A DNA stretch of 64,000 nucleotides from Bdellovibrionales bacterium. GTDB taxonomy: Bacteria; Bdellovibrionota; Bdellovibrionia; Bdellovibrionales; UBA1609. A program made the position numbers and the translations under genes. Shown here in pieces: positions 1,229-51,790 of the stretch. Within the stretch, counting starts at the first letter, position 1, and each line of letters starts with the position of its first letter. The notes under the pieces are model-generated. The model had not been told where the DNA came from and searched no databases. It worked only from the letters and a program-made list of their open reading frames with translations. The DNA is taken from assembly GCA_028819305.1 (NCBI GenBank), contig JAPPLY010000056.1, positions 14,800-78,799 on the forward strand, given 5' to 3'.

Positions 1229-1512
1229 ACTTCAACCTTTTATAAAAACTAAAAATACTAAGGGTTTAATCCCTCTTTACTATCTTCCCCTATTTATTTT
1301 TTACCTGTTTTACACTAAAAAGTCTAATTCTTAAAAATTGATATCTTATCTATTGATGATTCATACTATATAACGAAAGTCTTTCTTCTCAGAAGCGAGA
1401 TCCAAGGAAACTTAAAAGGAGGATAAAAAAATTAAGAAAAAAACTCACTTTTTTCCATTTACCCATTTTACTTTAAATTTATGCAGTGCATCTTTTGGAG
1501 ATCAAAAAATCT

Positions 1513-1566
1513 ATACCTCTCCGGTATGGAAATGGCAAACTCCGAGTCCCTCCCCAGAAAAAGCTT
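1513..1566 (-). repeat. Intergenic repeat copy g (spacer upstream of mreB)
   Basis: ATACC-TCTCC-GGTAT hairpin, then GGAAATGG...CTCCGAG...AAGCTT; same part order and orientation as copies a, c and e. Confidence 0.55.
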
Positions 1567-1599
1567 GCAGACACTACAAAAGGCAAAAAATATATATCC

Positions 1600-2273: not shown

Positions 2274-3071
2274 TTAACCAAGAAGATCAGAACGCCAAGC
2301 TAAAGTAAAAATAACAAAATATCTCGGTTTTTTCAAAGCCTGCCAAGCGGCTCTAGCGGTAGCCCCTGTAGTCAATATATCATCCACAAAAATAATTTTC
2401 TTTTTTTGGAAAAAATCCTTATTTATACTGATCTGAGTTGATTCCCGCGTTCCTGCTGCGGAAGAGGAAAACAGGCCCCGGGTGTGTGGTTTTTGTAAGC
2501 TTTTTTTGAGGAAGGAAGGAAACTCGGAGTTTGCCATTTCCAGACCGGAGAGGTCTATATGAAAATGAATTTCTTTTCTTTCCTGTCGGTTTTTTTGTTT
2601 TTGAAAAGCCTTTTTTTCAACAAAATCACCCCTTCTAAGCGGATTAAATAAATGAAGGCCCATTAAACGAGAAAAAGAAAGCGCGAGGCTAAATGCGTGG
2701 TCAGAAGAAGGCTTATAAGAGCGAGTGGGAGCTGGCACTAAAACCGCCTCCAGAGGAATAGGGTACTTTTGAACAATACGATGTACATACTCTAAAATAA
2801 TTTTATTAAAAACATCTCCTGGACCTCCTTTTTTTAAACTTTTTAAAAAAAGCCGAATAAAAAAATCATTTTCTCTGTTCCAATCAAAAAGCCGGATATG
2901 AGTCCAGCCATCCTGTTCGCGAATTATGTCTTCAGGACTTAAATAAAAGCTCCTTAACTTTTTCCAACAATCGGAACATAACCAATAGACAGGAGGCGCG
3001 GTTAAGCGACAAATACAACAGCTTCTAAACCAGTTCCCTAACCTTAATTTATTTTGCCAAAGATTTTTCAT
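2274..3071 (-). CDS. comF: ComF-family phosphoribosyltransferase
   Basis: N-terminal Cys pairs (CCICR...CSDCW) and C-terminal PRTase motif IIFVDDILTTGATA. Confidence 0.7.
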   Translation of the reverse strand: MKNLWQNKLRLGNWFRSCCICRLTAPPVYWLCSDCWKKLRSFYLSPEDIIREQDGWTHIRLFDWNRENDFFIRLFLKSLKKGGPGDVFNKIILEYVHRIVQKYPIPLEAVLVPAPTRSYKPSSDHAFSLALSFSRLMGLHLFNPLRRGDFVEKKAFQKQKNRQERKEIHFHIDLSGLEMANSEFPSFLKKSLQKPHTRGLFSSSAAGTRESTQISINKDFFQKKKIIFVDDILTTGATARAAWQALKKPRYFVIFTLAWRSDLLG

Positions 3072-6446: not shown

Positions 6447-7976
6447 CTACCAGCTGATCGGCTTCTTCACATAAGAGAGTCCATTACAATGAGGACAGGG
6501 TTCACAAAGTGTTTCTAACAAAGAAGAGCGGGTTCTTTTTCTTGTGATCTGAACCACTCCCAATTCCGACATAGGAAAGAGGCGCGTGGAAGAGCGATCT
6601 TTTTGAAATTCCTGGGATAAACATTCCATCACAGCTTGCCGAGATCGTTCCAGCTCCATATCAATAAAATCAATAAAAATGATTCCTCCACAGTTTCTCA
6701 GTCGCATTTGAATGGCGATTTCTTTTGCCGCCTCTAAATTAATTTTTAAAATAGTTTCCTCTGGGTTCTTTTTTCCCATAAAACGTCCTGTATTCACATC
6801 TACAACCACCGCCGCTTCTGTTTCTTCAATAACAAGAAAACCACCAGACTTTAAGTCCACTTTTTTATTCAATAAAAGCCCCAGTTTTGATTCTAAGGAA
6901 TATTGGTTAAAGAGAGATAGCCCCTCCTTCTCTGTGTTGTAAAAAGAAATTTTATGTCTTTCCTTCGGTATTTCCCGATCGACAAATTGTTGAATATGGT
7001 CCCCGAGTTTTTCATCATCCACTAAGACCTTTTCTACATCCTCTGTTAAAAAATCTCTTAACACCTGAGAGGGAAAAGAAACGTCAGACCAAACCAAGCC
7101 GGGAGAGGGGAGAGAGTGGTATTTTTCCCGAACATGATGCCATACGCTTTGTAAGTGTTCCCCATCTTTTATTAAGTCCTCCGGCCGGGCTTCCCTGGCT
7201 CTGGTCCTAATCACAAAAGAGGATTTCTGATTCCATTCTCGGACATAACGAATCAATTCTTCTTTTAACTTTTCATCTTCAATTTGTTTAGAAGCTCCAA
7301 TATAAAAAAGGACCTTAGGTAAATAAACCAAATACGGCCCCGGCAAACTAATTTTATCACTGACCCGCACATTTTTAGTTTTTAAAGGGTCTTTTATGAC
7401 CTGAACCATAAGGGTTTGGCCTTTCTTCAGTCGCTTTAAGCAAGCTTCTCTCCCTCCAGTATCTTGAAATATTTCTCTTTTCGGAGGGTTTTGCTCGGCA
7501 TGCTCCTCAAAAAACTCATGTTTTTTTGCCCCCTTTTCCCGTGCCATCTGTCGTTCTGGCGAACAAAGGTTCCTGCTAAGGTAAAGAAAGGCGGACTTTC
7601 CTGAACCTATATCTACAAAACAAACATTTAAACCTTCTTGTTTTTTTATGACACGAGCTTTATATATAGATCCCACTTGAGAAGGAACATTTAAGCATTC
7701 TAAATGAAAATGAGATAACACTCCTTGTTGTAGTTGAGCAATACGAGTGTAAGAAATACTCTTATTAATTAAAATAAGATTCTTTTTATGTTTTTGAGTT
7801 AATTTGGTTTTTTTCACTTTCTTCCTTATATTGATTTTGTATGATTCCCGCCCCTGGTGAGGACAAACTTTGTGGTTTCTATAAACTTCTTCCCAAGGAC
7901 AAGCAAGTTCGTTCAGAGGGGAAGGACCAGTCCCCTTAAAAACAGGGATTCTGGACTGATTTGATATAAGAGTCAA
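6447..7976 (-). CDS. rng: Ribonuclease E/G family endoribonuclease
   Basis: S1-like domain (GSIYKARV...FVDIG), catalytic core, C-terminal Zn-link-like CPHCNG. The ORF opens at TTG and the first ~65 aa are not RNase G-like, so the true start is uncertain. Confidence 0.8.
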   Translation of the reverse strand: MTLISNQSRIPVFKGTGPSPLNELACPWEEVYRNHKVCPHQGRESYKINIRKKVKKTKLTQKHKKNLILINKSISYTRIAQLQQGVLSHFHLECLNVPSQVGSIYKARVIKKQEGLNVCFVDIGSGKSAFLYLSRNLCSPERQMAREKGAKKHEFFEEHAEQNPPKREIFQDTGGREACLKRLKKGQTLMVQVIKDPLKTKNVRVSDKISLPGPYLVYLPKVLFYIGASKQIEDEKLKEELIRYVREWNQKSSFVIRTRAREARPEDLIKDGEHLQSVWHHVREKYHSLPSPGLVWSDVSFPSQVLRDFLTEDVEKVLVDDEKLGDHIQQFVDREIPKERHKISFYNTEKEGLSLFNQYSLESKLGLLLNKKVDLKSGGFLVIEETEAAVVVDVNTGRFMGKKNPEETILKINLEAAKEIAIQMRLRNCGGIIFIDFIDMELERSRQAVMECLSQEFQKDRSSTRLFPMSELGVVQITRKRTRSSLLETLCEPCPHCNGLSYVKKPISW

Positions 7977-8219
7977 AAAAAACCTTATTTTTAATAAGCG
8001 CTATCATCTACTGTTTTTTTGTCACGCAGAACAAAAAATTATCATCTCTTAGTAAAAATTAAAGAATTATATATAAAGGAAAGGTCTCTAAGTAAATAAA
8101 ATTATTTAATTATTCTTTAAAATGTAAAAAGAAGGAAAAATGTTTCATCTTATACTAGTCGTGTTTGAGTTTTCTTGTTAATTTTCTATTTATCTAAAGG
8201 TTAAAACTCCTGAAAAGTC

Positions 8220-8268
8220 GGAAAAGCTGGTCCCCGTGGAAATGGGGATCAAAGCCTTTGGCTTTGAT
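8220..8268 (+). repeat. Intergenic repeat copy f: 30-mer GGAAAAGCTGGTCCCCGTGGAAATGGGGAT followed by a 9-bp-stem hairpin
   Basis: 27/30 identical to the reverse complement of 44901-44930; hairpin ATCAAAGCC-TTT-GGCTTTGAT at 8248-8268; lies 48 nt upstream of the pccB-like start and in the same sense. Confidence 0.7.
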
Positions 8269-14503: not shown

Positions 14504-15491
14504 TAAAAAAAATTACTATGAAATTTTAAAAATTTCTCCTCTGGCTAGCCCTTTCACAATTAAAAAATCCTATCAAAAGCTAGCCCGTATCTATCATCCT
14601 GATAAAAATCCCGGCAATCCTGATGCGGCAGAAACCTTTAAACAAATAAATGAAGCTTATCAAATACTCAGTGACACTTTTAAAAGAAAAGATTTTGATC
14701 GTCAAAGAGAACAAGAAAAACAAAAAGAAGAACAAAAAAAGCAAAAAGAAGCTTTTTCTCCTTTATATGAATCTTATCATTCTTATTCTCCTTTTAGGGC
14801 TCCATCGGAGCCCTCTTCCACTCCCTCCCATCCTAAAAAAGAAGAAGATCCTTTTTCCATAAAAGGTTTAAAAACTTACTTCAAAAAAACAAACCTTCCT
14901 TCCTCCGATCAAATACGTGGACAACTAGAAATATCTTTAGAAGAAGCTGCTCTCGGATGTAAAAAAACCGTTTCTTTGAATTTCACACAAAAAGAAATCT
15001 TTTGGGTTCACATTCCTCCAGGGACAAAAGAAAAACAAAATATAAAAATCCATAATCAAAATAGTAAGTTAAAAGAAGATATATATGTTTCCATCACATA
15101 TAAAAAACACCCTTTATTTACCTTAGAAAAAGAAAATATTTTAATGGATTTACCTATTTCCTTTACTAAAGCCATTTTAGGCGGAGAAGTGGAAATACCC
15201 ACTTTAGGGGGCCGGGTTTCTTTTCAGCTACCAGCCGGCACTCACGGGGGTGATGTAATTCAGTTAAAAGGTCAGGGATTCCCTGTTTCTTCTCCTCACA
15301 AAAAAAAGAGAGGGCACATGTTTATCTCCGTACTTATTGATATTCCTATTCATTTTTCAGAAGAAGAAAAAAAATGGATCCAAAATATACAAAAGAGAAA
15401 TCAATCCTGTCCAAAGGTAGCTGAATTCAGTATAAAAACAAAACTTCTTCTCAAAAAAAGAAAAAATCCCAATCGCTTTCCTGAAGAATGA
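14490..15491 (+). CDS. J-domain co-chaperone, CbpA-like (no zinc-finger region)
   Basis: J domain with YHPDKNP; DnaJ C-terminal substrate-binding-like domains; no CxxCxGxG repeats. Confidence 0.75.
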   Translation: MSTDNKKNYYEILKISPLASPFTIKKSYQKLARIYHPDKNPGNPDAAETFKQINEAYQILSDTFKRKDFDRQREQEKQKEEQKKQKEAFSPLYESYHSYSPFRAPSEPSSTPSHPKKEEDPFSIKGLKTYFKKTNLPSSDQIRGQLEISLEEAALGCKKTVSLNFTQKEIFWVHIPPGTKEKQNIKIHNQNSKLKEDIYVSITYKKHPLFTLEKENILMDLPISFTKAILGGEVEIPTLGGRVSFQLPAGTHGGDVIQLKGQGFPVSSPHKKKRGHMFISVLIDIPIHFSEEEKKWIQNIQKRNQSCPKVAEFSIKTKLLLKKRKNPNRFPEE

Positions 15492-20984: not shown

Positions 20985-21152
20985 TTGACTATTCAAATGA
21001 ATATAACAAAAGAAAAACATTTGAATAGTCAAACCTTACTTTTTGGAATTATTAGTCATTATTAAAGCACAACGCGACAAGTTAATAATCAAAAAAAGAA
21101 GGAATACTTGAATCCATTAAATTGACTATTCAATAATAATTTGACTATCCAA
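20985..21152. promoter_or_regulatory. Cluster of four copies of the near-palindromic 12-mer TTGACTATTCAA
   Basis: Copies at 20985-20996, 21021-21032 (inverted), 21122-21133 and 21141-21152 (TTGACTATCCAA). The first two extend to a perfect 15-bp inverted repeat. All lie upstream of the HTH gene at 20292-20900. Confidence 0.5.
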
Positions 21153-22590
21153 AAATGAAGAGGGAGGGGATAAGCCCACTAGCTAAAATAAAGCCCGACA
21201 AAAGTAATAAACAAGAAGTCAAAAAACGGGGTAAGCGAATAAACACCTTTTTTTCTCTTATTTGCAGATCCTTTTTCATATACATAAGAGCTATGGGCTT
21301 CAGATAATAAAAAAGAGCTATGCTGGAACCTAAAATAGCCCAAAATAGCATCCACCATAAACCCTGATCCAGCAAAGCCTGAAAAACAAATAATTTTGAA
21401 ACAAAGCCTCCCGTGGGGGGAATACCAGCCAAACTCAATAAAAAAAGAGTTATTAAAAAAGCATGAAAAGGTTTTTGGTGAACTAATCCATCTAATTCAC
21501 TGAGATTCAAGGCAACACTGTCTTTTTTTTCAAAAGGTCTTAAACATATAAAAATACCCAAAGTTGTACCTATATATACTATTAAATAATAAAGTAGGGC
21601 TGTCCTTCCAAAGAAAGAACCCATTTGGGAGACAATTAAAATCATAAGTAAATAACCAGAATGAGCCACTGTAGAAAAAAGCAGCATTTTTTTAAAGTCC
21701 TTTTGAAGCAAAGCAATAATATTTCCAAATAAAACACTCAATACGGCTAACCACTGAAAAAGAGATAATAAAACCGAAAACTCCAGAAGAGAAAACATAT
21801 TTCTTGTCCATTCAAAAAGCAGTATGAATATAACCAACTTAAGACCTGTCGCCATAAGAACTAAAAGGGGAGTAAAGGAAGCTCTATATACATCCGGCAG
21901 CCAAAAATGAAACGGAAAAATAGATACTTTAAATAAAAAACCCACCAGAATAAATATAAGACCTAAGGTCAGAAGACGAGAGCTTGTAATTAATTCAGGA
22001 CTTTGTTGAAAAATTCTCTGCAAATCAAAATGCCCAGAAGAACCCACAACAAAAGAAATTCCATAAAGTAAAATAGCGGAAGCCACGGAACCTAAAACAA
22101 AGTATTTAAAACTGGCCTTTAAAGCTTGTGACCCTGTGCGTCCCAGAGCAATTAACAAATAAAAAGATAAAGAAGCTAATTCCAAGCCAATGAAAGCGAT
22201 GAGTAAATTACCCGCCCACAGTAAAATTAATAAACCAAAAAGGGAGCCTATTTTTAAAAAGAGAATTTCAGAAAAAATATTTTCATTTACCTGGGGTTGT
22301 TGAATACTCATAAGCACTATAAAAAACCCCACCAATAACAAAACAAGAGAAGCTATAGCTCTCAGTTCATTAAATACCAAAGCTTCTGAAAAAAGGGTTT
22401 TTATCTCTATATTAGAAGAGGGCCAAATCAAAAATAAAAGAACAAGGGAAGTAAAAATACCTATCAGAATAAAACCCGAAGATAAAAACAAAGAGCTCTC
22501 TTTATTTTTATTTAAAACCTTTAAGCTGATGGGGATTAAACTAAATAAAAAAAGAGACCATAAAGGAGAACTTAGAAGAAGATCACTCAT
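21145..22590 (-). CDS. nuoN: NADH-quinone oxidoreductase subunit N
   Basis: 481-aa polytopic ND2-like ORF; 4-nt overlap with nuoM. Confidence 0.85.
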   Translation of the reverse strand: MSDLLLSSPLWSLFLFSLIPISLKVLNKNKESSLFLSSGFILIGIFTSLVLLFLIWPSSNIEIKTLFSEALVFNELRAIASLVLLLVGFFIVLMSIQQPQVNENIFSEILFLKIGSLFGLLILLWAGNLLIAFIGLELASLSFYLLIALGRTGSQALKASFKYFVLGSVASAILLYGISFVVGSSGHFDLQRIFQQSPELITSSRLLTLGLIFILVGFLFKVSIFPFHFWLPDVYRASFTPLLVLMATGLKLVIFILLFEWTRNMFSLLEFSVLLSLFQWLAVLSVLFGNIIALLQKDFKKMLLFSTVAHSGYLLMILIVSQMGSFFGRTALLYYLIVYIGTTLGIFICLRPFEKKDSVALNLSELDGLVHQKPFHAFLITLFLLSLAGIPPTGGFVSKLFVFQALLDQGLWWMLFWAILGSSIALFYYLKPIALMYMKKDLQIREKKVFIRLPRFLTSCLLLLSGFILASGLIPSLFIFG

Positions 22591-24170
22591 AACCCCCCCT
22601 GTCTCCTGGTGTTATGGGTTCCAGACATATCTGATATTAATGAAAAATGTTTTTGCCCTAAACGGAAATTTTTTGTTTTGATATTCAAATTATAGTTTTC
22701 TCTGCTTTCCTGTAAGTGGTTTAAAGAAACAGTAGAGTATTTAAGAAATGCTTTAGGGAAAAGACCCATTCCAAAAACGAGAAAAACAAAAGGGAGAATA
22801 ATCCCCATTTCTCTTTTTGATAACAAAGAAGTTTTTTGAGACAAAACAGACACTGAACCAAAAAACACACGATGAATAAGATATAACATATAAGAGGCTC
22901 CAAAAATGACTCCCCATAGAGCTAAAAACAAAGCTCCCCAGTTTCTAGCTGTAAAAGACCCCATTAAAACAAAAAACTCTGAAATAAAACCTCCTGTGGA
23001 GGGAAGAGCTATAGCAGAAAGAGAAATAATAACAAAGTTGATAGCTAAAATTGGCATTTTTTTAGCCAGTCCTCCATAATCTGAAATATTTAAACTCTGC
23101 GTTCTTTCATAAAGGATTCCCACTAATAAAAACAAACCAGCAGAAGAAACCGCATGTGTGAGCATTTGGTAATAGCCCCCTGTTAAGCCATACTCATTTA
23201 AACTAAAAAGACCTAAAAGAACATAGGCCATATGAGATACAGAAGAGTAAGCCACTAGTTTCTTTATGTTCTTTTGCGCCAAAGCCATAAGAGCTCCATA
23301 AAAGATCCCCACACCGGCTAAAAAACATATAGAAGAGGCAAAAAACTCCACAGATTGGGGAAAAAGAGGCAAAACAAAGCGTAAAAATCCATAAGCTCCC
23401 ATTTTTAAAATGACCGCGGCTAATACAGCCGATCCGGGAGCAGGAGCCTCCACATGAGCCAGTGGCAACCAGGTGTGAAAAGGAACAAACGGGAGTTTTA
23501 TCGCAAAAGCTAAAAAGAAACAAAAAAACAAAACATTTTGAGTGCTCAGCAAACTCGCTTCAAAGGGTAACTCCAACTTGTAAAAATCCAATAAACTAGC
23601 GCTCATTTCCCCTGTCGATTGTAAAGTAAGATGCATTAAAGCCACTAAACCTGCCAGTAAAAATAAAGACCCAAACGCCGTATAAATAAAAAACTTAAAA
23701 GCCGCATAGATCCTCTCTTTACTACCCCAAATCCCAATAATGAAATAAAGAGGAATAAGAGAGCTTTCAAAAAAAATATAAAAAAGAATAGTATCCATAG
23801 CCAAAAATGTGCCCATCACAGAAGTAATCATCAAAAATAAACAACAATAAAAAGCAGATACCTTCTCCTTTATCAAATTCCAAGAAGCTCCCACACAAAC
23901 TGGCAAAAGAAAAGCCGTTAAAATAACAAACCAAAAAGAGAGACCATCCACCGCTACAAAATATTCAATGCCCAAAGCCGGAAACCAGGAAAACCGCTCC
24001 CCTAATTGTAGTTCCTCTGTTTGAGAGTCAAAAAATAAAAATAAGCTCAAACTAAACAAAAAGTACGCTACGGAACAAAAAGCAGCTCCTTTACGACATA
24101 AAGAGGGGTTTTTTATAAAAACCAGAATTAAAGCAAAAACCAAAGGTAAAAAAATTAAAGCACTGAGCAT
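22587..24170 (-). CDS. nuoM: NADH-quinone oxidoreductase subunit M
   Basis: 527-aa polytopic ND4-like ORF. Confidence 0.85.
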   Translation of the reverse strand: MLSALIFLPLVFALILVFIKNPSLCRKGAAFCSVAYFLFSLSLFLFFDSQTEELQLGERFSWFPALGIEYFVAVDGLSFWFVILTAFLLPVCVGASWNLIKEKVSAFYCCLFLMITSVMGTFLAMDTILFYIFFESSLIPLYFIIGIWGSKERIYAAFKFFIYTAFGSLFLLAGLVALMHLTLQSTGEMSASLLDFYKLELPFEASLLSTQNVLFFCFFLAFAIKLPFVPFHTWLPLAHVEAPAPGSAVLAAVILKMGAYGFLRFVLPLFPQSVEFFASSICFLAGVGIFYGALMALAQKNIKKLVAYSSVSHMAYVLLGLFSLNEYGLTGGYYQMLTHAVSSAGLFLLVGILYERTQSLNISDYGGLAKKMPILAINFVIISLSAIALPSTGGFISEFFVLMGSFTARNWGALFLALWGVIFGASYMLYLIHRVFFGSVSVLSQKTSLLSKREMGIILPFVFLVFGMGLFPKAFLKYSTVSLNHLQESRENYNLNIKTKNFRLGQKHFSLISDMSGTHNTRRQGGL

Positions 24171-24185
24171 AGCTATTCACTCCCT

Positions 24186-26090
24186 TCAAAAAAGGAACAC
24201 CGAGAGAGTACAAATAATTAATCCTAAAAGCATAAATAAAATATAACTCTGGGTTTTTCCGTTTTGAGCACTTTCAAACAACTCTTGTAAAACAAGTAAT
24301 TTTTTTTGAATCAATATAATAAAACCTTGAATCATCTTTACATCTACACCCCACCAAAGATCATAACTGACATTTAAAACCGGGCGCACCATTTTAGAAT
24401 AACAAAAGGAGTCCACACCCAAGGCAGCCTCTAAAGCATCAAACACAGTTTGGTTTTTCTTTTTTAAAAAGAAAACTGTTTTTTGCCTTTTTAAATAAAG
24501 CCAAAAACTGATTAAGACAATGGATAAAATGAAAACCGAAGACCCTATCATTAAAATACCCTCTGCTAAATGAGTCCCCTTAAACTGTTTTTGAATAACT
24601 ATTGGTTTTAAATATTCTGCAAGTAAATGAGGAGGATGACCTGGTAAATACTCACTGATTAAATGAGGAATACCTATAAAACCCCCTAAGACAGAGAGAG
24701 TCGCCAATATTCCCAAAGGAAATTTAGCAAAGAACCCCCCTTCATGGGGGGTTACCCCTGATTTTAAACGACTTGTACCATGAAAGACCAAAATATAAAG
24801 CCGGCTCATATAAAAAGCGGTTACAAAAGCCGTTAACAAAATTAAAGAAAATACAGCAAATTGTCCAGAAGCTAAAGCCGACCACAAGATTTCATCCTTA
24901 CTAAAAAAACCCGAGAAAGGAGGCAAGCCAATAAGGGCTAAGAATCCTATAAGAAAGCACAACCAAGTAAAAGGAAGTTTCTTCCTCAGCCCGCCCATGT
25001 TATAAATATTTTGTTCCCCATTTAAAGCATGAATCACGGACCCGGCGGTTAAAAACAAAAGTGCTTTAAAAAACGCATGTGTAAGAAGATGAAACAAAGA
25101 AGCTGTAAAAGCCCCTAAACCAGCCGCTACACACATATAACCTAACTGAGAAACAGTAGAATAAGCCAGCACCTTTTTAATATCACTCTGTGCACAAGCA
25201 ATAAAAGCAGCCAACATAGCTGTCATAGCGCCCACCCAACTAATAAGAGTTAACACTTCCGGTGCTAAAATAAATAAAGAATGCATCCTCACTATTAAGT
25301 AAATACCGGCAGTGACCATGGTAGCCGCATGAATCAAAGCAGAAACAGGAGTAGGACCCGCCATAGCAGAAGGAAGCCAAATATATAAAGGAATCTGAGC
25401 CGATTTACCGATCACTCCCATAAACAAAAAGAAACAGGCCCACTTTACAGCACTTAAATGAACGGAACCAGGGGCCCCCTCAGATAAAACATCAAACTGC
25501 AAAGAAGCAAACTCTTGAAACAAAAGAAACATTCCCAACAAAAAACCCACATCACCTATACGATTAACAATAAAAGCCTTCATACCGGCCGCGGCTTTTT
25601 GCTTATCTGTAAACCAAAAACCTATGAGTAAATAAGAACAAAGCCCCACTCCCTCCCAACCTAAGAACATGAGAAACAAATTATCTGCTGATACTAAAAC
25701 AAGCATACTAAAAATAAACAAATTGAGATAAGAAAAATACTTCGCAGGCCGATCATCATGTGACATATAATACAAACTAAAAACATGAATCAAAAAACCC
25801 ACTCCCGTTATCAACAACAGCATTAAAACACTCAAAGGATCTACTAAAAAAGAAAAGGAAACTTTAAAAGAGGATATATTTAGCCACTCAAAAAAAGAGA
25901 CCAAAAAATCAACTTTCTTTTGGGATAAGAAAGAAAGAAATAAAAAACCCGCGCTCAAAAAAGAAATAAAACAAGATGTAACACCAATAAAACCCGCTAT
26001 TTTAAGATCAGGCTTTTTCCATCTAAAGCCATTTATCAAAGCTCCTATTAAAGGAGCCAACAAGAGAGCCATAAGGGCTATTTTCATCAT
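24186..26090 (-). CDS. nuoL: NADH-quinone oxidoreductase subunit L
   Basis: 634-aa polytopic ND5-like ORF. Confidence 0.88.
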   Translation of the reverse strand: MMKIALMALLLAPLIGALINGFRWKKPDLKIAGFIGVTSCFISFLSAGFLFLSFLSQKKVDFLVSFFEWLNISSFKVSFSFLVDPLSVLMLLLITGVGFLIHVFSLYYMSHDDRPAKYFSYLNLFIFSMLVLVSADNLFLMFLGWEGVGLCSYLLIGFWFTDKQKAAAGMKAFIVNRIGDVGFLLGMFLLFQEFASLQFDVLSEGAPGSVHLSAVKWACFFLFMGVIGKSAQIPLYIWLPSAMAGPTPVSALIHAATMVTAGIYLIVRMHSLFILAPEVLTLISWVGAMTAMLAAFIACAQSDIKKVLAYSTVSQLGYMCVAAGLGAFTASLFHLLTHAFFKALLFLTAGSVIHALNGEQNIYNMGGLRKKLPFTWLCFLIGFLALIGLPPFSGFFSKDEILWSALASGQFAVFSLILLTAFVTAFYMSRLYILVFHGTSRLKSGVTPHEGGFFAKFPLGILATLSVLGGFIGIPHLISEYLPGHPPHLLAEYLKPIVIQKQFKGTHLAEGILMIGSSVFILSIVLISFWLYLKRQKTVFFLKKKNQTVFDALEAALGVDSFCYSKMVRPVLNVSYDLWWGVDVKMIQGFIILIQKKLLVLQELFESAQNGKTQSYILFMLLGLIICTLSVFLF

Positions 26091-26103
26091 AACATTTTTC
26101 CCT

Positions 26104-26187
26104 ATACCTATTAGGTATTATTGTTTCTATAACTTTCCGGTTCTTTCCTCCAGGCAACCAAGCTTTTACAATCAAAAATTTTTAAAC
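26104..26187 (-). repeat. Intercistronic repeat copy a (nuoK-nuoL spacer)
   Basis: ATACCTA-T-TAGGTAT hairpin plus an AAGCTT-containing tail; about 70 percent identical (59 of 84 aligned columns) to 29518-29599. Confidence 0.75.
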
Positions 26188-26499
26188 AGGGTCGGTATAT
26201 TTAGAATCTTCTAAAACAAAAAGATCCATCTGTGTCCACCTGCGACTGATAAGCACAATTAAGGCTAAACCCACTCCCGCTTCCGCCGCCGAAATAGTCA
26301 TTACAAAAAAAGCCGCCACTTGAGCCGAAAGTAAATTATAAAACTGACTAAAAGAGACAAAAGAAAGATTAACCGCATTCAACATCAACTCTATGCTCAT
26401 AAGTATAATCAAGAGATTCCGGCGCGCTAGCACACCAAAAAAACCAATAACAAACAACAAGAGAGAAACTATTAAAAAGTGATTTAATTCTATTTCCAT
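26182..26499 (-). CDS. nuoK: NADH-quinone oxidoreductase subunit K
   Basis: 105-aa three-TM ND4L-like ORF (SIELMLNAVNL, AAAEAGVGLA). Confidence 0.88.
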   Translation of the reverse strand: MEIELNHFLIVSLLLFVIGFFGVLARRNLLIILMSIELMLNAVNLSFVSFSQFYNLLSAQVAAFFVMTISAAEAGVGLALIVLISRRWTQMDLFVLEDSKYTDPV

Positions 26500-26502
26500 T
26501 TA

Positions 26503-27021
26503 TTATTCCTTTTCCGAAGGAGTTTGCAAAAAAGGTCGCTGGCGACATAAAACAGCGACCCCTACAGCTATCAGGAGAAGTAAGATCCCCAGCACTTCAA
26601 AAGCCAAAACATAATCTATAAACAATAAAGAAGAAAGATCCTTTGTAGAAGTCTTTTGAATCGTTTCCATGGAACGAGGAGGAAATAAATGAAGAGAAAA
26701 AGGAAAAATGCCTACGATCAAACCAGACAAGAAGAATAAACTGGCTAACTTCATCCAAAGCCCTTTACTAAATAAAGTTTCTTTTTTTCGTTTTAAGTCA
26801 AAAAGCATCACGACCATAATAAATAACACCATAACAGCACCTGCATAAACGAGGACTTGCACTCCCGCTATGAAATGCGCTCCTAAAATAAAAAAAAGCC
26901 CTGCTAAAGCCAGCATAGACCCCGCCAAATGCAAAGCGCAGATCACCATATCTTTATGAGTGACGGTAATAACAGCACCATATAAGGCCAAAGCGGAAAA
27001 CAAGATAAACAAAAAGTCCAT
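26503..27021 (-). CDS. nuoJ: NADH-quinone oxidoreductase subunit J
   Basis: 172-aa ND6-like ORF. Confidence 0.8.
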   Translation of the reverse strand: MDFLFILFSALALYGAVITVTHKDMVICALHLAGSMLALAGLFFILGAHFIAGVQVLVYAGAVMVLFIMVVMLFDLKRKKETLFSKGLWMKLASLFFLSGLIVGIFPFSLHLFPPRSMETIQKTSTKDLSSLLFIDYVLAFEVLGILLLLIAVGVAVLCRQRPFLQTPSEKE

Positions 27022-27024
27022 TAA

Positions 27025-28176
27025 TTAAACCCCTCTCATTAAAAAAACCCCTATTCCTGTTATAACTGTGTTCACTAAGGCCCAAGGTAAAAGGGTTTTC
27101 CATCCTAAATCCATGAGTTGATCATATCGAAACCGAGGAAGTGTCCAACGCACCCAAATAAATATCCAAAGAAAAAAAAGCAATTTTATCAAAAACACCA
27201 AATGCAAAACTAAAGCTGTCAAAATACTCTGACCTGTAGAAGACAAAAAATGAAAAAAAGACTTCAGTGTATCCGGTGTTAAAAAAGGCCATAAAGTATA
27301 TCCTCCAAAATAAAAAGTCACCATTAAAGCCGAAGCCACCAGCATGTGACCATATTCCCCCATATAAAACATAATAATTTTTACTCCTCCGTATTCTGTA
27401 TGGTAACCTGCTACTAACTCTGCCTCCGCTTCTGGCAAATCAAAAGGAAGCCGATTGGCTTCTGCAAATAAAGCCACAAAAAGCAAAAGAGCTCCTAAAG
27501 GTTGGTAAAAAATTCCCCAATTAGGAAGAAAAGCAAGTTTTACTGGTTCTCCAAAAAAATAAAATTGCAATGGGCCATTTTGAGCCGCCACTATTTCAGA
27601 AAAGCTAAAAGTATTAAAAAGGAGAAGCACACCTACTATAGAAAGACTTAAAGCTAATTCATAGCTAATGGCCTGAGCAGAAGCTCTTAAGGCGCCATAA
27701 AGAGAAAACTTGCTGCCAGAAGACCAGCCCGCCAATAATAAAGAATACACAGCTAAGGAACTTACACCTAAAACAAAGACAACACCAATACTAATAACAA
27801 AAGATTGAAAATAAAAAGTATAAGGTCCCCATGTTTGTCCTAACCATTTAAAAGCTTCCACCTCTATAGGGGTAGAAAGAGGAATAGCACCAAAAGCTAA
27901 GGCCGCGGGAATAAGAGATAAAACAGGGGCTGAATAAAAAAAACTCTTTCGTCCTTTATGACCCAAAAAATCTTCTTTACATAAAAACTTTACGAGGTCC
28001 GCTAGATTCTGCATCAGTCCTAACGGGCCAATCCGATTCGGACCAAAACGGTTTTGAATAAAAGCAGATCCCCTTCTTTCCGCCCAAACCAAAAAAGGCA
28101 CCATTTGCACCATTAGTAAAAAAATAAAGGCTATTTTAATAAAATTAATCCCTACTTCAAAAAGATCACTTCCCAT
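27025..28176 (-). CDS. nuoH: NADH-quinone oxidoreductase subunit H
   Basis: 383-aa ND1-like ORF (ERRGSAFIQNRFGPN, PFDLPEAEAELVAGYHTEY). Confidence 0.9.
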   Translation of the reverse strand: MGSDLFEVGINFIKIAFIFLLMVQMVPFLVWAERRGSAFIQNRFGPNRIGPLGLMQNLADLVKFLCKEDFLGHKGRKSFFYSAPVLSLIPAALAFGAIPLSTPIEVEAFKWLGQTWGPYTFYFQSFVISIGVVFVLGVSSLAVYSLLLAGWSSGSKFSLYGALRASAQAISYELALSLSIVGVLLLFNTFSFSEIVAAQNGPLQFYFFGEPVKLAFLPNWGIFYQPLGALLLFVALFAEANRLPFDLPEAEAELVAGYHTEYGGVKIIMFYMGEYGHMLVASALMVTFYFGGYTLWPFLTPDTLKSFFHFLSSTGQSILTALVLHLVFLIKLLFFLWIFIWVRWTLPRFRYDQLMDLGWKTLLPWALVNTVITGIGVFLMRGV

Positions 28177-28242
28177 ATTTTTTTCTTCCTTCGTGGGAGA
28201 TTCATTATCCTCTTCCTATTTTTTCCCTTCTCCTTAAAGACA

Positions 28243-28275
28243 ATACCCCTCGGGTATTATTTTTCCGGAGTTTTC
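28243..28275 (-). repeat. Intercistronic repeat copy b (nuoA-nuoH spacer)
   Basis: ATACCC-CTC-GGGTAT hairpin followed by TATTTTTCCGGAG; 19/20 match to the hairpin core of 44815-44834. Confidence 0.65.
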
Positions 28276-28324
28276 AAATCCAATCGAAATACATAGCTAA
28301 AACAACCACTTTATTCTTCCGTCC

Positions 28325-28702
28325 CTATTTCCATCGTAATGCTTTAGAACCGATTTCCCAAAACAAACCATAGACGAAAATGAGAAGAAACACTATCATG
28401 GCCACAAGCGCTTCTAATCCCTGACCTTGATTTAAAAAATCTTTAAATGTTAAAGCCCAGGGATAAAGAAAAATGATTTCTATATCAAATAAAATAAATA
28501 AAATAGCTGTTAAGTAAAACTGTACTGATACACGTGAACTGATTTGCTCTTCTCCTTCAAGACCACATTCATAAGGCAAACTTTTAGCTTTGGAGGCCGG
28601 TTTTTTCACCTTCGCGCCAAACCAATGAGCAAGGGATAACATAAAAGCCCCAAAAGTAAGGACAATTAAACTACAAATTAAAACCGGTACTAAAGAATCC
28701 AT
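28325..28702 (-). CDS. nuoA: NADH-quinone oxidoreductase subunit A
   Basis: 125-aa ND3-like ORF (PYECG, FDIEIIFLYPW). Confidence 0.88.
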   Translation of the reverse strand: MDSLVPVLICSLIVLTFGAFMLSLAHWFGAKVKKPASKAKSLPYECGLEGEEQISSRVSVQFYLTAILFILFDIEIIFLYPWALTFKDFLNQGQGLEALVAMIVFLLIFVYGLFWEIGSKALRWK

Positions 28703-28761
28703 TTTTCTCCTATAAGATAAAAGAGTCTAGCCTCTCTTTTTTTCTCCACCTTTACGAAAAA

Positions 28762-29499
28762 TTAAAATATACTTTTAAAGTACTCCCTATTCATCCTAGC
28801 AATGGAATGAAGGGAAATCTCTTTAGGACAAGCGCGAGAACAAGCCCCTGTATTAGTACAAGCCCCAAAGCCTTCTTTTTCCATTTGTTTCACCATTTTT
28901 AAAACCCGTGCCTTTTTTTCCACCTTTCCTTGTGGCAATAAAGCCAGATGAGATACTTTAGCAGCCACAAACAAACTAGCAGAAGCATTTTTACAAACAG
29001 CTACACAAGCTCCACAGCCAATACAAGCGGCATGGGAAAAAGCCTCCTCCGCTTTGGCTTTTTCTACGAGTATACTATGCGCTTCCGGAGCTTGACCTGT
29101 ATTAACAGAAACATAAGCACCAGACTGAATGATACGATCAAAAGCAGAACGATCTACAATCAAATCCTGAAGAACAGGGAAAGCTTTAGCCCGAAAAGGC
29201 TCTATCCATATTTCTTCCTTATCTTTAAAAGATCTTAAATGCAGCTGACACACCGCTGATCCAGCATGAGGGCCATGAGGATTACCATTTATTACTAAAG
29301 AACAAGAACCGCAGATTCCTTCCCTACAATCATGGTCAAAAGCCACAGGCACTTTTTTTTGCCCAACCAGATCTTCATTTAACTGATCCAGCATTTCTAA
29401 AAAAGACATATCCGGTGAGAGATGATCCATTTCATAATTTTCAAAGCTCCCTTTTTTCTGACCTCTTTTTTGTCTCCAAATTTTTAGTTTTAATAACAT
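28762..29499 (-). CDS. sdhB: Succinate dehydrogenase/fumarate reductase iron-sulfur subunit
   Basis: 2Fe-2[10 protein letters not shown] and 4Fe-4[12 protein letters not shown] / [12 protein letters not shown] clusters. Start moved to ATG 29499 (MLLKLKIW) because the track's extra 34 codons are covered by repeat copy c. Confidence 0.85.
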
Positions 29500-29517
29500 A
29501 AACTCTAGTCCTTTTTT

Positions 29518-29599
29518 ATACCCAGAGGGTATTATTTTTTCGTAACTTCTCGGCCTTTTTCCCTTGTTAGCCAAGCTTTTAAAACTGAAATTTTCAAAC
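29518..29599 (-). repeat. Intercistronic repeat copy c (sdhA-sdhB spacer)
   Basis: ATACCC-AGA-GGGTAT hairpin plus an AAGCTT tail; about 70 percent identical to 26104-26187. Confidence 0.75.
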
Positions 29600-29644
29600 A
29601 CGAGCAGTATAATTCATCACACAAACTTGTAAAACATTTTTTTC

Positions 29645-31555
29645 TTATTTATAACTCCGCACACTTAAAGATACTTCTTTAAACTCTAAAGGTTCTTTAT
29701 GCAAAAGAGCCTTTTTTCCTTCTGTATGCTCCCAAACGGATACATGACAAAAATGTTCATCATCTCTTAAAGCCTCCTGCTCTTGACTTTGATATTCCTC
29801 GCGAAAATGAGAACCACAAGACTCCTTCCGTTCCAAAGAATCCTGAGCCATTAGCTCGGCCAATTCTAAAAAATCAGCCACGCGTAAAGCTTTCTCTAGT
29901 TCCGCGTTTTTATAGTGCTGCTCTCCTGGAATGAAAAGCTCTTTCCAAAACTGATCTTTCAAACCTTGTATAGCTGTTATCACCTGTATTAAACCTTTTT
30001 CATTCCTTAACATACCTACATATTCCCAAAGCAAATACCCCAGTTCACGATGAATGGCTCCTGCCGTCTTACCCCCTTTTATTTGCAAAACCTTATCCAG
30101 TCGCTTTTGAACTTCTTTTACACTCTCCTCCAACGCTTTTTTTACCTTCTTCTCTTCCAAAGAAGAACGCTCGACCAAATGCCGAGCTATCGTCCTGGGA
30201 ATAATAAAGTACCCATCCGCCAAACCCTGCATAAGAGCAGAAGCCCCTAAGCGATTAGCTCCATGATCGGAAAAATTAGCTTCTCCTAAAACAAAAAGCC
30301 CTTTCACTGTGCTTTCCAGATTATAATCTACCCAAAGCCCCCCCATCGTATAATGTACAGCCGGATAGATACGCATGGGTTTTTCATAAGGGTTTTCTCC
30401 TGTTATCTTTTCATATATCTGAAATAGATTGCCATATTTTTCCGAAAGAAAATTTTTACCCCTTCTCTCTAAAGCTTCTTTGAAATCCAAATACACCGCT
30501 TCTCCTGTAGGGCCTACCCCTTTTCCCGCATCTACTTGAAATTTAGCCTGTCGAGACGCCAAATCTCTAGGAGTTAAATTACCAAAAGAGGGATAAATTC
30601 TTTCCAGATAATAATCTCTTTCCCCTTCAGGAATATTTTCCGGCACTCGTTTATCCCCGGATTTTTTAGGAACCCAAATCCGCCCATCATTTCGAAGAGA
30701 CTCAGAAAGCAAAGTTAATTTAGATTGGTGATCTCCAGAACGGGGAATACAGGTAGGGTGAATTTGGGTAAAACAAGGGTTAGCAAAAAAAGCCCCTTTT
30801 TTATAACATCGCCAAGCCGCACTAGCATTGGAGTGCATGGCATTAGTAGAAAGATAAAAAATATTGCCATAACCCCCTGTAGCTAAAATCACCGCCTGAG
30901 CAAAATGGCTTTTTATCTCCCCTGTTAACAAGTTACGAGTGACAACTCCAGCCACTTGTCCTTCTACCACTGCTAAATCCATCATTTCATGGCGAGGAAA
31001 AAGCCTCACTCCCCCTTTATCCACCTGCCTCATTAAAGCCCCATAAGCTCCTAATAGAAGCTGTTGTCCTGTTTGTCCCCGAGCATAAAAAGTACGAGAC
31101 ACTTGCGCCCCGCCAAAGGAGCGATTCGCTAAAAGCCCTCCGTACTCTCTGGCAAAAGGCACCCCCTGTGCCACACATTGATCTATGATCTGATTAGAAA
31201 TCTGAGCGAGGCGATAAACATTAGCTTCCCTGGAGCGAAAATCCCCTCCTTTGATAGTATCATAAAATAATCTCCTTATAGAATCTCCATCTCCAGGGTA
31301 ATTCTTAGCTGCATTAATACCGCCCTGAGCCGCAATAGAATGCGCCCTTCTAGGAGAATCCTGAATGCAAAAAGTTTTTACCTGATAACCTAGCTCTGCC
31401 AAAGAAGCCGAAGCCGAAGCCCCTGCCAAACCCGTTCCTACTACAATTATATGGTGTTTTCTTTTATTAGCCGGATTCACAAGAGGTAATTCAAAACAAT
31501 GACGATCCCACTTTTGTTCTAAGGGACCTGAAGGAATATGATTGAAAAACTTCAT
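29645..31555 (-). CDS. sdhA: Succinate dehydrogenase/fumarate reductase flavoprotein subunit
   Basis: FAD-binding GTGLAGASA and [12 protein letters not shown]. Start placed at ATG 31555 ([10 protein letters not shown]), 5 nt after the sdhC stop; the longer track ORF overlaps sdhC. Confidence 0.9.
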
Positions 31556-31560
31556 TCTCT

Positions 31561-32232
31561 TCACCCCCCTTTTTCTGTCATAAAAAAGAACACATACAAA
31601 GGCAAAGATACATATCCCATAGTAACAAATACAGCATAACCAAAACTCAATTTCTTTATCCAAAAATCAAACCGAGGATGACTTAAACCTAAAGACTGAA
31701 AAGAGGATATCAAACCATGAAATAAATGAACACAAAGAACCAACAAGGCAATGAGGTACCATAAAACAGTCACCGGTTTTTGGAACTCCTCCACCACGAG
31801 CTGAAACAAGTTCCTTATGGTCTTACCCTCATAAACCACCTCATAATAAGTTCCAAATTTAAAAGTAATAAGATGTAAAACCACAAAAACCAAAATAATT
31901 GCCCCTTGAAATATCAAACTTTTTTGATACCAGGCGGTCGCTTTCCAGCCGGAAGCCTGCCGAGCGTATTTCTCAGAGCGAGAGAAATAATTTTTTACAC
32001 TTAAAAAGAGAGCTAATATTATATGAAGTAAAAAAGCAGCCAAAAGCCCCACTTGAATAAAAAAGGCGGCTTTCCCATGCACCATCTGATGCATATATAA
32101 ATTATAGGCTTTATCCCCAGCAAAAATAAGCAAATTCCCTAGCATATGCAGTAAAACAAAAAGGGCCAGGCCCAGACCTGTTAAGCCAATTAAATATTTT
32201 TGCCCTATAGACAAGAAAAACCATTTTCTCAT
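31561..32232 (-). CDS. sdhC: Succinate:quinone oxidoreductase cytochrome b subunit (single large type-B anchor)
   Basis: 223-aa five-TM ORF with conserved His residues; C-A-B gene order as in Bacillus and Wolinella type-B enzymes. Confidence 0.75.
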
Positions 32233-32328
32233 ATTGCCATAATCCCCCTTACCAGGATATTATACAAGAAATTTTTCATTTATACTGAATGGGTATAAAG
32301 AACAACACTAAAAAAGGACTTTCTAACA

Positions 32329-37368: not shown

Positions 37369-38312
37369 AAACAATTCATATTACAACAGGGGACCCTGAT
37401 GGAGTGGGATTGGAGGTAAGCCTCAAAGCCCTAAAAAAAATAGGACCCCAAAGAGGCATACAGTTTACCTTATGGAGATCAAACCAAGCTCCTAGAGAAC
37501 TGTTAAGTTTAACGGATGGCCTCTTTTTCCGTATAAATCCCTTAAAACAAAAAAACTTAGAAAAGTATAAAAAAGAAAATATTTTTCTAGATATACCTGG
37601 TTCTTCTACACCCACAAAGTGGGTAGCCAGGGCTGCCCAAAGTTGTCTTAAAAATAAAAATACGGAAGCTCTGGTAACAGGTCCTCTTTCTAAAACACAA
37701 ATGCAAAAAGAACTTTTTCCAGAAAAAGGTCATACACATTTATTAAAAAAATTAAGTGAAACAGAGCATGTATTTATGACTTTCCTAGGAAAGTGCTTCC
37801 ATGTCACTCTTCTAACAGACCATGAACCTCTAAAAAAAATAAACTGGACTAAAAACAGTTTAAATAAATGTATTGCGCTTTGTCTTCAACTTCAGCAATC
37901 TTGTTCTCTTAAAGCCAAAAATAAGAAAATAGCTCTTCTGGGCCTCAATCCCCATGCCGGTGAAGAAGGTTTATTAGGAAAAGAGGAGTTTTCCTTAAAA
38001 AAAGAAATCCAAAAATGGAATAACCAAGTAGAAGGTCCTTTGGTGCCAGATGTCGCTTTCTTAAAAAAAAATCAAAAGAAATATTTTCTTTATATTTGCT
38101 TGTACCACGATCAAGGTTTAATTCCTTTTAAAATGATACATGAAAGAGACAGCTTCCAGTTCAGTTTAGGTTTACCTTTCATTAGAACCAGTGTCAGTCA
38201 TGGCACGGCTAAAGATATTTTTGGAAAAAACAAAGCAAACTCTCAATCTATGGAAAAAGCTCTACTTTGGACTATCCGTTCTCTACGAAAAAACAAAACC
38301 CTTTGGGTTTAG
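37365..38312 (+). CDS. pdxA: 4-hydroxythreonine-4-phosphate dehydrogenase
   Basis: ITTGDPDGVG N-terminus, LNPHAGE, RTSVSHGTA motifs; ATGA overlap with surA. Confidence 0.88.
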   Translation: MKTIHITTGDPDGVGLEVSLKALKKIGPQRGIQFTLWRSNQAPRELLSLTDGLFFRINPLKQKNLEKYKKENIFLDIPGSSTPTKWVARAAQSCLKNKNTEALVTGPLSKTQMQKELFPEKGHTHLLKKLSETEHVFMTFLGKCFHVTLLTDHEPLKKINWTKNSLNKCIALCLQLQQSCSLKAKNKKIALLGLNPHAGEEGLLGKEEFSLKKEIQKWNNQVEGPLVPDVAFLKKNQKKYFLYICLYHDQGLIPFKMIHERDSFQFSLGLPFIRTSVSHGTAKDIFGKNKANSQSMEKALLWTIRSLRKNKTLWV

Positions 38313-38319
38313 TATGAGA

Positions 38320-38371
38320 TAAGTAGAACCATAGAATTTACCGGAGTTTACCAAACAAAACCCTTTGGGTT
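38320..38371 (+). repeat. 52-bp repeat, left copy (pdxA-pmm spacer)
   Basis: Exact reverse complement of 40309-40360, checked base by base; imperfect extension back to ~38301; its 3' 19 nt (38353-38371) repeat 38291-38309 exactly. Confidence 0.95.
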
Positions 38372-38400
38372 AAAGGGCCTATAAAAGCGAGAAAAAGTAT

Positions 38401-40247: not shown

Positions 40248-40308
40248 TCTTTCGTCCTCCTCTGCATATTATCTATTTCTATTGCCACAAATAACATATA
40301 AGCTCCCA

Positions 40309-40360
40309 AACCCAAAGGGTTTTGTTTGGTAAACTCCGGTAAATTCTATGGTTCTACTTA
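40309..40360 (-). repeat. 52-bp repeat, right copy (atpB-atpE spacer)
   Basis: Exact reverse complement of 38320-38371; imperfect extension to ~40379. Confidence 0.95.
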
Positions 40361-40405
40361 CCCCATACCAAACCCAAGAAATTTAATCCTTAAGTAAATG
40401 AAAAA

Positions 40406-44887: not shown

Positions 44888-44930
44888 CTCTGTGGGTATT
44901 ATCCCCATTTCCACGGGAGCAAGCTTTTCC
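44888..44930 (-). repeat. Intergenic repeat copy e (gyrB-gyrA spacer)
   Basis: GGGTATTATCCCCATTTCCACGGGAGCAAGCTTTTCC; 27/30 identical to the reverse complement of 8220-8249. Confidence 0.7.
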
Positions 44931-45006
44931 ATGGCTTTTTGTCTTCTTAAGTTTCATCTCTAAAAACCAGAAACTTTTAAACAGGATCGGTATTAAAAAC
45001 CGCCCA

Positions 45007-48606
<3,600 letters not shown>

Positions 48607-48607
<1 letters not shown>

Positions 48608-49815: not shown

Positions 49816-49899
49816 ATTGAATCAGACTCTTAGAGGAAAAAAATTATAAAAAAAGCAACGACTATTAAATATAAATATTATAATAGCAGTAGTAGGCTT

Positions 49900-49996
49900 T
49901 GTTGATAACAAATAATTAATAAATAAGCACTTAAAATCATAAAAAAAACGATATAACAAAATGAGTAAAATAAGGATGTGGAAAAAATGTTGATAA
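49900..49996. other. Candidate oriC segment: three DnaA-box-like 9-mers in the AT-rich dnaA-dnaN spacer
   Basis: TGTTGATAA at 49900-49908 and 49988-49996, TGTGGAAAA at 49977-49985; each is one mismatch from TGTGGATAA. Confidence 0.45.
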
Positions 49997-50026
49997 GTAA
50001 AAAAAGAAAAAGAAAGACCTGTTTTT

Positions 50027-51448: not shown

Positions 51449-51495
51449 GTTTTATTTAGGGCATAAAAAGTCATAAAGCTATCATAAACCTCTGC

Positions 51496-51525
51496 TTGAC
51501 GAGAAGAGCCAAAACATGCTTTTAT
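51496..51525 (+). promoter_or_regulatory. Possible rpmH promoter
   Basis: TTGACG at 51496-51501, 18-nt spacer, TGc-TTTTAT extended -10 at 51517-51525; by eye only. Confidence 0.3.
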
Positions 51526-51565
51526 TATGCGTCAATAGACTTTTTATTATCTGGAGAAGGAAAAA

Positions 51566-51715: not shown

Positions 51716-51790
51716 AAATCTTTTTATACCGAGCTGGCATGAGAAAAGATGTCCTTTTGAGTTTTTTCATTAAAAACTCAGGTTTCTTTG

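Follow-up and report, generated by a model that had tools for sequence, protein, structure and literature searches.

The window analysed in this study is a 64,000-nt stretch of DNA from a Bdellovibrionales bacterium (contig JAPPLY010000056.1, positions 14,800 to 78,799; G+C content, 35.8%), and is part of the 89,975-nt ENA scaffold ROBB21-1_SAMN13943215_METAG-scaffold_641 of a Bdellovibrionales metagenome-assembled genome (MAG). Its minus strand carries an sdh-nuo operon with the gene order sdhC-sdhA-sdhB-nuoA-nuoH-nuoJ-nuoK-nuoL-nuoM-nuoN, as judged from open reading frames (ORFs) and Pfam. Three spacers of this operon hold copies, designated a, b, and c, of a small repeat family, F1, which is the subject of this study together with its longer sister family, F2. 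A NuoH-based scan with one genome per species yielded 80 orthologous loci, all from Bdellovibrionota, and genome sizes among relatives are ~1.3-2.3 Mb. The closest relative among the 80 loci, L002, has a NuoH that is 94% identical, and is collinear with window positions 17087-38567 at ~86% DNA identity. The nuo cluster, in the window (21145-32232) as well as in loci L003-L030, contains only the membrane-arm genes nuoA-H-J-K-L-M-N, and nuoB-G and nuoI must be located elsewhere in the genome. The nuoA-nuoH adjacency is kept in every relative inspected, and sdhCAB is fused upstream of nuo only in the window and L002 among these relatives. The copies in the operon are as follows:

26097..26202, minus strand: F1 copy a, full length (~105 nt), at the nuoK-nuoL junction; matched by nhmmer and by a covariance model (CM)
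28242..28293, minus strand: F1 short form b, in the nuoA-nuoH spacer; left-end-like TATTTCGATTGGATTTGAAAA plus hairpin AATAATACCC-GAG-GGGTATT
29511..29614, minus strand: F1 copy c, sdhA-sdhB spacer, also full-length; matched by nhmmer and CM

The minus-strand segments 26104-26187 and 29518-29599, which the earlier note on this DNA had aligned at 59 of 84 columns, are identical at 62 of 85 columns, with an alignment score of 35 compared to -8.8 ± 4.7 (maximum 9) for 2000 shuffles. With copy a as the sole query, nhmmer matched copy c in the window at E=7e-6. The likeness of a and c reaches further 5' than first noted, to ~105 nt in total (26097-26202 and 29511-29614), and in copy a it enters the final nuoK codons. 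The copies share the left end TATAC(C/T)G..C.TGTTT(A/G)AAAATTT, and the motifs AAAGCTTGG, CCGGAAA/CCGAGAA, and AATAATACC-N5-GGTATA were found in the long copies just as they had been described. Copy a is composed of the left end TATACCGACCCTGTTTAAAA, a central AAAGCTTGG...CCGG stem, and a right-end hairpin, ATACCT-AAT-AGGTAT, followed by A; the corresponding hairpin of copy c is ATACCC-TCT-GGGTAT. The hairpin ends 12 nt before the downstream ATG in a and 17 nt before that of sdhB (29499) in c, and 77 nt before the start codon in b. The sdhB ORF (28762-29601) is over-extended by 34 codons relative to its true start at 29499, in agreement with the earlier proposal, and a short-read assembly (Logan contig L001) breaks within copy c. 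Short form b sits within a 122-nt lineage-specific insertion (28192-28314), the remainder of which has no second copy in the sampled DNA. That b is a genuine shorter relative, as had been suspected, is apparent from its left end plus hairpin architecture, which recurs in the sister species L089. There, two tandem F1 short forms (left end and hairpin, ~45 nt each) occupy the comF-lolA spacer (L089 1364-1480); the same junction in the window has a 56-nt spacer only.

The idea that these elements were inserted into the operon is borne out for a and b by comparison with L002. Despite the same gene order, L002 has empty sites at both junctions, with spacers of 14 nt instead of 91 nt at nuoK-nuoL and 24 nt instead of 148 nt at nuoA-nuoH, and remoter relatives have either short spacers at these junctions or long ones with no detectable likeness to the elements. 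At nuoK-nuoL, L002 reads TCTAAATAAGGAAAGATG and the window reads TCTAAATA/TACCGACC...AATAGGTA/TAGGGAAAAATG, with slashes marking the boundaries; around the nuoK stop codon, this corresponds to TCTAAATA/TACC...GGTA/TAGGG in the window versus TCTAAATAAGG in L002. Insertion of copy a thus split the ancestral nuoK stop codon, and NuoK gained five residues, so that its C-terminus is LEDSKYTDPV* in the window, compared to LEDSK* in L002. NuoK proteins of relatives align only up to residue ~100 of 105. The added segment is:

26182..26199, minus strand: element-derived nuoK 3' extension, codons YTDPV and a new TAA stop; from comparison of NuoK with L002

L002 also bears its own, different insertions, including an F2 copy in the nuoM tail, and its sdhA-sdhB junction contains a solo hairpin, AATAATACCCC-CA-GGGGATT, and a longer F2-type element. 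Taken together, the insertions are polymorphic, as in transposable elements of the miniature inverted-repeat type (MITEs), with empty sites in L002 and L090 and insertions elsewhere in L002 and L089. At nuoK-nuoL and in comF, the sequences with and without an element are compatible with a 2-3-bp TA/ATA duplication, without proving one.

Copies were counted in the window and ~14 kb of flanking scaffold (~78 kb) by iterative nhmmer and CM searches, and the lineage DNA compared amounts to ~100 kb in total. The ~78 kb of this genome contains at least eight F1 and at least four F2 copies, i.e., about one per 6.5 kb, and these at least 12 dispersed copies agree with the many copies per genome that characterise MITEs. 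The F1 unit is ~100 nt long, with a short form of ~45 nt; it begins with the left end TATACYGAYC..GTTTGAAAA and closes with an A-rich tract, the hairpin ATACC-N5-GGTAT, and a final A. F2 (~120-140 nt) has ends homologous to those of F1 and an extra G+C-rich hairpin; the two families can be aligned over their full length, and there are mosaic as well as short forms. Copies range from 45 to 140 nt, and most carry stops in most frames, consistent with the non-coding nature of MITEs. Copy-to-copy identity is 62-81%, so that the family is either old or fast-evolving. Besides a, b, and c, the following copies and related sequences were identified:

44900..44997, minus strand: F1 copy d, gyrB-gyrA spacer; left end AATACCGATCCTGTTTAAAA as in the other copies, variant 3' module AAAGCTTGCTCCCGTGGAAATGGGGAT
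8148..8250, plus strand: F1 copy e, divergent region separating rng from a carboxyltransferase gene; variant 3' module like that of d; E=0.005
L086 16083-16183, L086 14398-14498, and L087 17282-17387: F1 copies beyond the window; nhmmer and CM
2424..2562, plus strand: F2 copy within, and antisense to, the comF-like ORF 2274-3071 (minus strand); nhmmer E=3e-29
1507..1599, minus strand: F2 copy, 5'-truncated, lolA-mreB spacer, hairpin ATACC-GGAGA-GGTAT; E=1e-21
7827..7898, plus strand: F2 partial copy immediately upstream of the RNase G gene (gene call in L086); E=3.5e-9
L086 11563-11698, L002 15435-15555, and L002 8662-8788: further F2 copies; nhmmer
32281..32297, minus strand: solo palindrome TATACC-N5-(G/A)GTATA, ~16 nt upstream of the -10-like TGTATAAT of sdhC

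Copy d was matched by the CM at E=2.4e-11, although it was part of that model, and by nhmmer at E=8.5e-6 before its inclusion. Of two weaker CM matches (E range, 0.08-0.4), 47455-47556 was not counted, the family motif being absent on inspection, and 55838-55939 was left out of the copy counts. Across the remaining 79 Bdellovibrionales loci (1.46 Mb), neither family had a match, and blastn of F1 and F2 against plasmids returned none either. Rfam 15 gave nothing at the gathering score in the window, and only noise (E>1) in 26000-29700. A scan of JGI metagenomes for AAGCTTGG-N17-CCG-N15-25-AATAATACC gave four chance matches of other G+C content with no nhmmer similarity, and a profile of the peptide encoded by F2, when run against a protein database, collected three candidates, none of which scored. 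The lineage-specific nature proposed for the element is supported.

It is noteworthy that members of both families lie in-frame within protein genes. Compared with the orthologues in L090, FPP synthase has a clean 31-aa (93-nt) insert, LPLGFENTGFKGGAARSKEPTRGGKIIPDGD, which is an F1 copy with conserved flanks, and a patatin-like protein has a 63-aa insert holding an F1 copy in the same frame as in FPP synthase; the extra 84 nt of the latter have no further copy in the sampled DNA. Both inserts share the peptide ..PLGFENTG.K... Likewise, the comF-like protein has a 44-aa F2-encoded in-frame insert just before its phosphoribosyl pyrophosphate (PRPP) motif, which is missing from nine homologues and is present minus 13 aa in the sister species. 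The hypothetical protein hyp298 contains an in-frame F2 insert, and NuoM of L002 is read through the F2 copy at the 3' end of nuoM (15435-15555), giving 560 aa compared to 527 aa. The F2 frame ..KSLQKP..STQISI is common to these unrelated proteins. The F2 antisense strand is almost free of stops, and the open frame lies on opposite strands in the two families, sense in F1 and antisense in F2. Thus, although the proposed lineage-specific element is genuine, the proposal of an intercistronic RNA signal in place of coding sequence is not supported, and the location is not strictly extragenic as it is for repetitive extragenic palindromic (REP) sequences and bacterial interspersed mosaic elements (BIMEs). 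Past the window end (L087 14985-17426), the first ~48 codons of a gene for a pilin-like/Peptidase_S74 protein contain F1 copy R1 in antisense. This copy directly precedes the N-terminal methylation motif KKGVTLVE, and three such genes stand in tandem; it seems that the leader peptide was either replaced by R1 or made longer by it.

The terminal hairpin is the part of the element for which pairing is best supported. In 15 modules (F1, F2, and solo), which were picked and anchored by hand, 84% of the cells are paired compared to 73.5% in shuffles, and eight double-change cells were found compared to 2.4; none of 500 shuffles reached the observed values, and slid controls gave 23-39%. Compensatory changes convert ATACC/GGTAT to AGACC/GGTCT and to TGATT/AGTCA, in line with the stem covariation that had been suggested as a check. 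The hairpin is, nevertheless, weak (5-7 bp, -4 to -9 kcal/mol). For a two-hairpin model (72% of cells paired vs 66% in shuffles) and for the central CTTGGYT/RRCCGRG stem the support is modest only, and RNAalifold of six copies returned just a 4-bp hairpin of -1.7 kcal/mol. Of the F2 copies, the most intact one, which is in L002, pairs over its whole length (z = -3.3).

F1 copies are also biased in orientation. Seven are in the sense of local gene transcription and one is antisense, and every canonical module of A-tract plus hairpin is sense, the solo hairpin of L002 and the short forms of L089 among them. On its opposite strand, F1 presents the hairpin followed by TATTATTTTTT, and terminator-like calls were obtained on the plus strand for b and c, with stems of only two to three G-C pairs (-4 to -7 kcal/mol). 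It is plausible that reverse-oriented operon copies, in which the hairpin and UAUUAUUUUUU would be terminator-like in the mRNA, have been removed through polarity. A replication-linked strand bias was rejected, as five copies are leading and three lagging relative to an origin at ~51.5 kb. The origin region (47450-52531) contains dnaA (50027-51448), dnaN, recF, gyrB, and gyrA on the minus strand and rnpA, yidD, yidC, jag, and trmE on the plus strand, with a GC skew sign change at ~50-52 kb. No internal sense promoter was found in a or b, and copy c has only a junction hexamer pair, TTTACA-16-TATACT, that uses the left end of the element; promoter-like sites are no commoner in the elements than in shuffles.

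What was directly observed, namely repetition, polymorphism of the insertions, restriction to one lineage, in-frame copies in genes, covariation of the hairpin, and the sense bias, is probably best explained if the three spacers contain copies of new, lineage-restricted, non-autonomous mobile repeats, MITE-like in anatomy and resembling Rickettsia palindromic elements (RPEs) in behaviour, which ride in the operon as passengers. The copies would probably have spread in trans via an enzyme encoded elsewhere, which would recognise the TATAC/GTATA ends or the terminal hairpin, and insertion appears to favour AT-rich TA sites. Copies would persist only where they are harmless, that is, between cistrons, at the ends of genes, and in-frame where a protein tolerates them, for which the copies described above give partial evidence, and those in sdh-nuo would be co-transcribed with the operon. 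Hairpin covariation can equally be explained by selection on the source elements for recognition by the mobilising enzyme. The F1/F2 finding accounts for the unusual length of the spacers, the five-residue tail of NuoK, and the over-extension of the sdhB ORF in this MAG.

Several observations weigh against this interpretation. In contrast to classic MITEs and RPEs, F1 lacks overall palindromic symmetry, and folding of its whole copies does not surpass that of shuffles. Its terminal inverted repeats (TATACC...GGTATA) are short and imperfect, with six perfect bp and ~8/13 overall. Neither a transposase nor an autonomous parent element was found in the ~100 kb of lineage DNA compared, and there is no evidence of current activity, because the copies are only 62-81% identical. 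The target-site duplication is ambiguous, and the FPP synthase site has no clear TA. In principle, some of the 'empty' sites could be deletions, and the nuoM tail of the window (about 22600-22655) does resemble a deleted remnant of the L002 F2 copy. Both the hairpin covariation and the strong sense bias would also be expected of an RNA element beneficial to the host, and the terminator argument for the bias is soft since the hairpins are weak.

Alternatively, the repeat may be selfish but mobilised as single-stranded DNA (ssDNA) via its terminal hairpin by a Y1/HUH transposase, either of the type of REPs and their associated tyrosine transposases (RAYTs) or of the type of IS200/IS605 and palindrome-associated transposable elements (PATEs), rather than by cut-and-paste. 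The short covarying terminal hairpin as the sole structurally constrained part, the solo hairpins and mosaic or short forms as in BIMEs, and the very short terminal inverted repeats of an overall non-palindromic F1 would all fit such a mechanism. However, the left end has no hairpin, no RAYT or TnpA gene is present in the gene lists of the DNA compared, and the copies are ~100 nt long and also intragenic, unlike REPs. Furthermore, ssDNA transposition of this type is expected to produce a replication-strand bias, and the orientation of F1 does not track replication (5:3). Y1/HUH systems are not known to make a target-site duplication, whereas the flanks of F1/F2 are compatible with one of TA/ATA. 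We therefore regard Y1/HUH mobilisation as unlikely.

The reading closest to the earlier note is a host-functional RNA cis-element: as part of the operon transcript, the copies would serve as stability barriers, as processing sites, or as signals of translation coupling, and would adjust the relative output of the sdh and nuo cistrons in the manner of enterobacterial REP/BIME. In its favour are the sense orientation of all operon copies and of seven of the eight F1 copies family-wide, the compensatory changes in the terminal stem, and the hairpins of a and c, which end 12-17 nt ahead of the following start codon. The same distance is 77 nt in b, though, and L002 does with the same operon lacking a and b. 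Moreover, the 4-bp RNAalifold consensus and the shuffle-like folding of the whole element offer little structure for such a role, hairpins of -4 to -9 kcal/mol seem too weak for a REP-like exonuclease barrier, and lengthening tight junctions (14 to 91 nt and 24 to 148 nt) is likelier to disrupt coupling than to create it. Family members at unrelated loci and in-frame within ORFs are also difficult to reconcile with it. The scan for orientation and location over ~78 kb had a mixed outcome, the sense bias favouring an RNA-level signal and the copies inside genes being what the earlier note itself had named as speaking against it; these genic copies may be regarded as the key result opposing an intercistronic signal. 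The analogy to REP/BIME holds insofar as F1 is a small, hairpin-bearing dispersed repeat, and fails on its intragenic copies, its ~100-nt length, and its weak hairpin. Individual copies may have an RNA-level role, but such a role is unnecessary to explain the data and is weakened by the L002 empty sites and the genic copies; as a general explanation it is improbable.

A related and similarly doubtful speculation is that mobile repeats did spread as proposed, but that some F1 copies have since been domesticated, with the sense-only orientation and the covarying hairpin reflecting a host function. Such a function might, for example, be to block antisense transcription into sdh-nuo, gyrBA, and others, or to punctuate polycistronic mRNA. 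If this were the case, an RPE-like repeat would double as a regulatory module and a source of new peptides in housekeeping proteins, in a host that would be a reduced-genome predatory or symbiotic Bdellovibrionales lineage.

It is very unlikely that ATACC-N5-GGTAT is the DNA operator of a dimeric regulator of respiratory genes and that the repeats serve to spread this operator. The palindrome does occur four times in the window versus 0.03 expected, with three occurrences in sdh-nuo, and the putative sdhC promoter has at its -35 position a near-copy, the solo palindrome listed above, with a conserved counterpart in L002 (5984-5998); this near-copy may be either an element remnant or a genuine operator. 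However, the palindrome otherwise always lies within a longer repeat, also at gyrB-gyrA, lolA-mreB, comF, FPP synthase, and others, two of the three operon sites are missing in L002, and the stem covariation keeps pairing rather than a fixed recognition sequence. Finally, chance likeness of A-rich spacers in a genome of 36% G+C, or local duplication of one spacer within the operon, can be dismissed given the score of 35 against a shuffle maximum of 9, E values of 7e-6 to 1e-28, and other copies 18-40 kb away and past the window in unrelated contexts.

If the mobile-repeat interpretation is right, its main consequences concern annotation and genome evolution. Such repeats, some of them hidden in ORFs, may make up ~1-2% of the DNA of this lineage, as extrapolated from ~78 kb, and would call for caution in gene prediction. 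They also provide a non-rickettsial case of small repeats tolerated in-frame in housekeeping proteins of a small AT-rich genome, and could be used to study how reduced genomes gather selfish DNA or as markers for strain and species typing. By itself, the F1/F2 finding does not reveal a new regulatory principle.

Other repeats were also observed in the window. An 81-nt inverted pair (38303-38383 and 40297-40377; 90% complementary) flanks phosphoglucomutase and ATP synthase c-subunit genes; each copy has two AAACCC-TTT-GGGTT hairpins, and a weak third copy lies past the window (L086 beyond-window 742-797). This pair seems to form a repeat family of its own. At 63547-63939 there is coding sequence for ankyrin repeats with a periodicity of ~90-156 nt (repeat family D1), and at 57534-58421 an AbiEii-like gene. 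Ankyrin repeats are frequent in host-associated bacteria.

Among known systems, REPs are strong palindromes of ~35 nt that carry a GTAG head, lie strictly outside genes, and are linked to RAYT. Like REPs and BIMEs, F1 and F2 are hairpin-bearing dispersed repeats, often intercistronic, with mosaic modules and solo hairpins; unlike them, F1 has a ~100-nt unit with a 5-7-bp hairpin (-4 to -9 kcal/mol) in place of a ~35-nt stable imperfect palindrome, and has copies in ORFs as well as outside them. Other small repeats of bacteria include Correia, enterobacterial repetitive intergenic consensus (ERIC), and SPRITE elements, as well as RPEs with their frequent in-frame insertions (PMC10969869). One small repeat with a hairpin and T-run is terminator-like in one orientation (PMC10969869), and F1 is alike in this respect, albeit with a weaker stem, and in every canonical copy its terminator-like face is directed against the local genes; the two are not related in sequence.

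Similarity to the Correia element (CREE) of Neisseria, and to ERIC, Nezha, and QMITE, lies in small size, many dispersed copies, and presence/absence polymorphism (PMC10969869). As with Correia elements and other MITEs, F1/F2 copies are next to or between genes and co-transcribed, with flanks compatible with a TA duplication and occasional promoter-like hexamers at their ends. The terminal inverted repeats of Correia elements are 26 bp long, whereas those of F1/F2 have only ~6 perfect bp, and neither an integration host factor (IHF) site nor a long duplex of the RNase III type nor a known parent insertion sequence (IS) was found for F1/F2. F1 and F2 resemble RPEs in that both are ~100-150-nt non-coding repeats of a small AT-rich genome, with sites between genes and in-frame in unrelated housekeeping genes, where they add a family peptide, and with no linked transposase (PMC10969869). 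In-frame insertion into unrelated genes giving a conserved peptide was indeed found for both F1 and F2. They differ from RPEs in that their host belongs to another phylum, Bdellovibrionota, in that F1 is not palindromic overall, and in that F1 and F2 use opposite strands for the open frame. By analogy, therefore, F1 and F2 may be viewed as a functional counterpart of RPEs rather than as members of that group, resembling RPE and Correia elements in behaviour.

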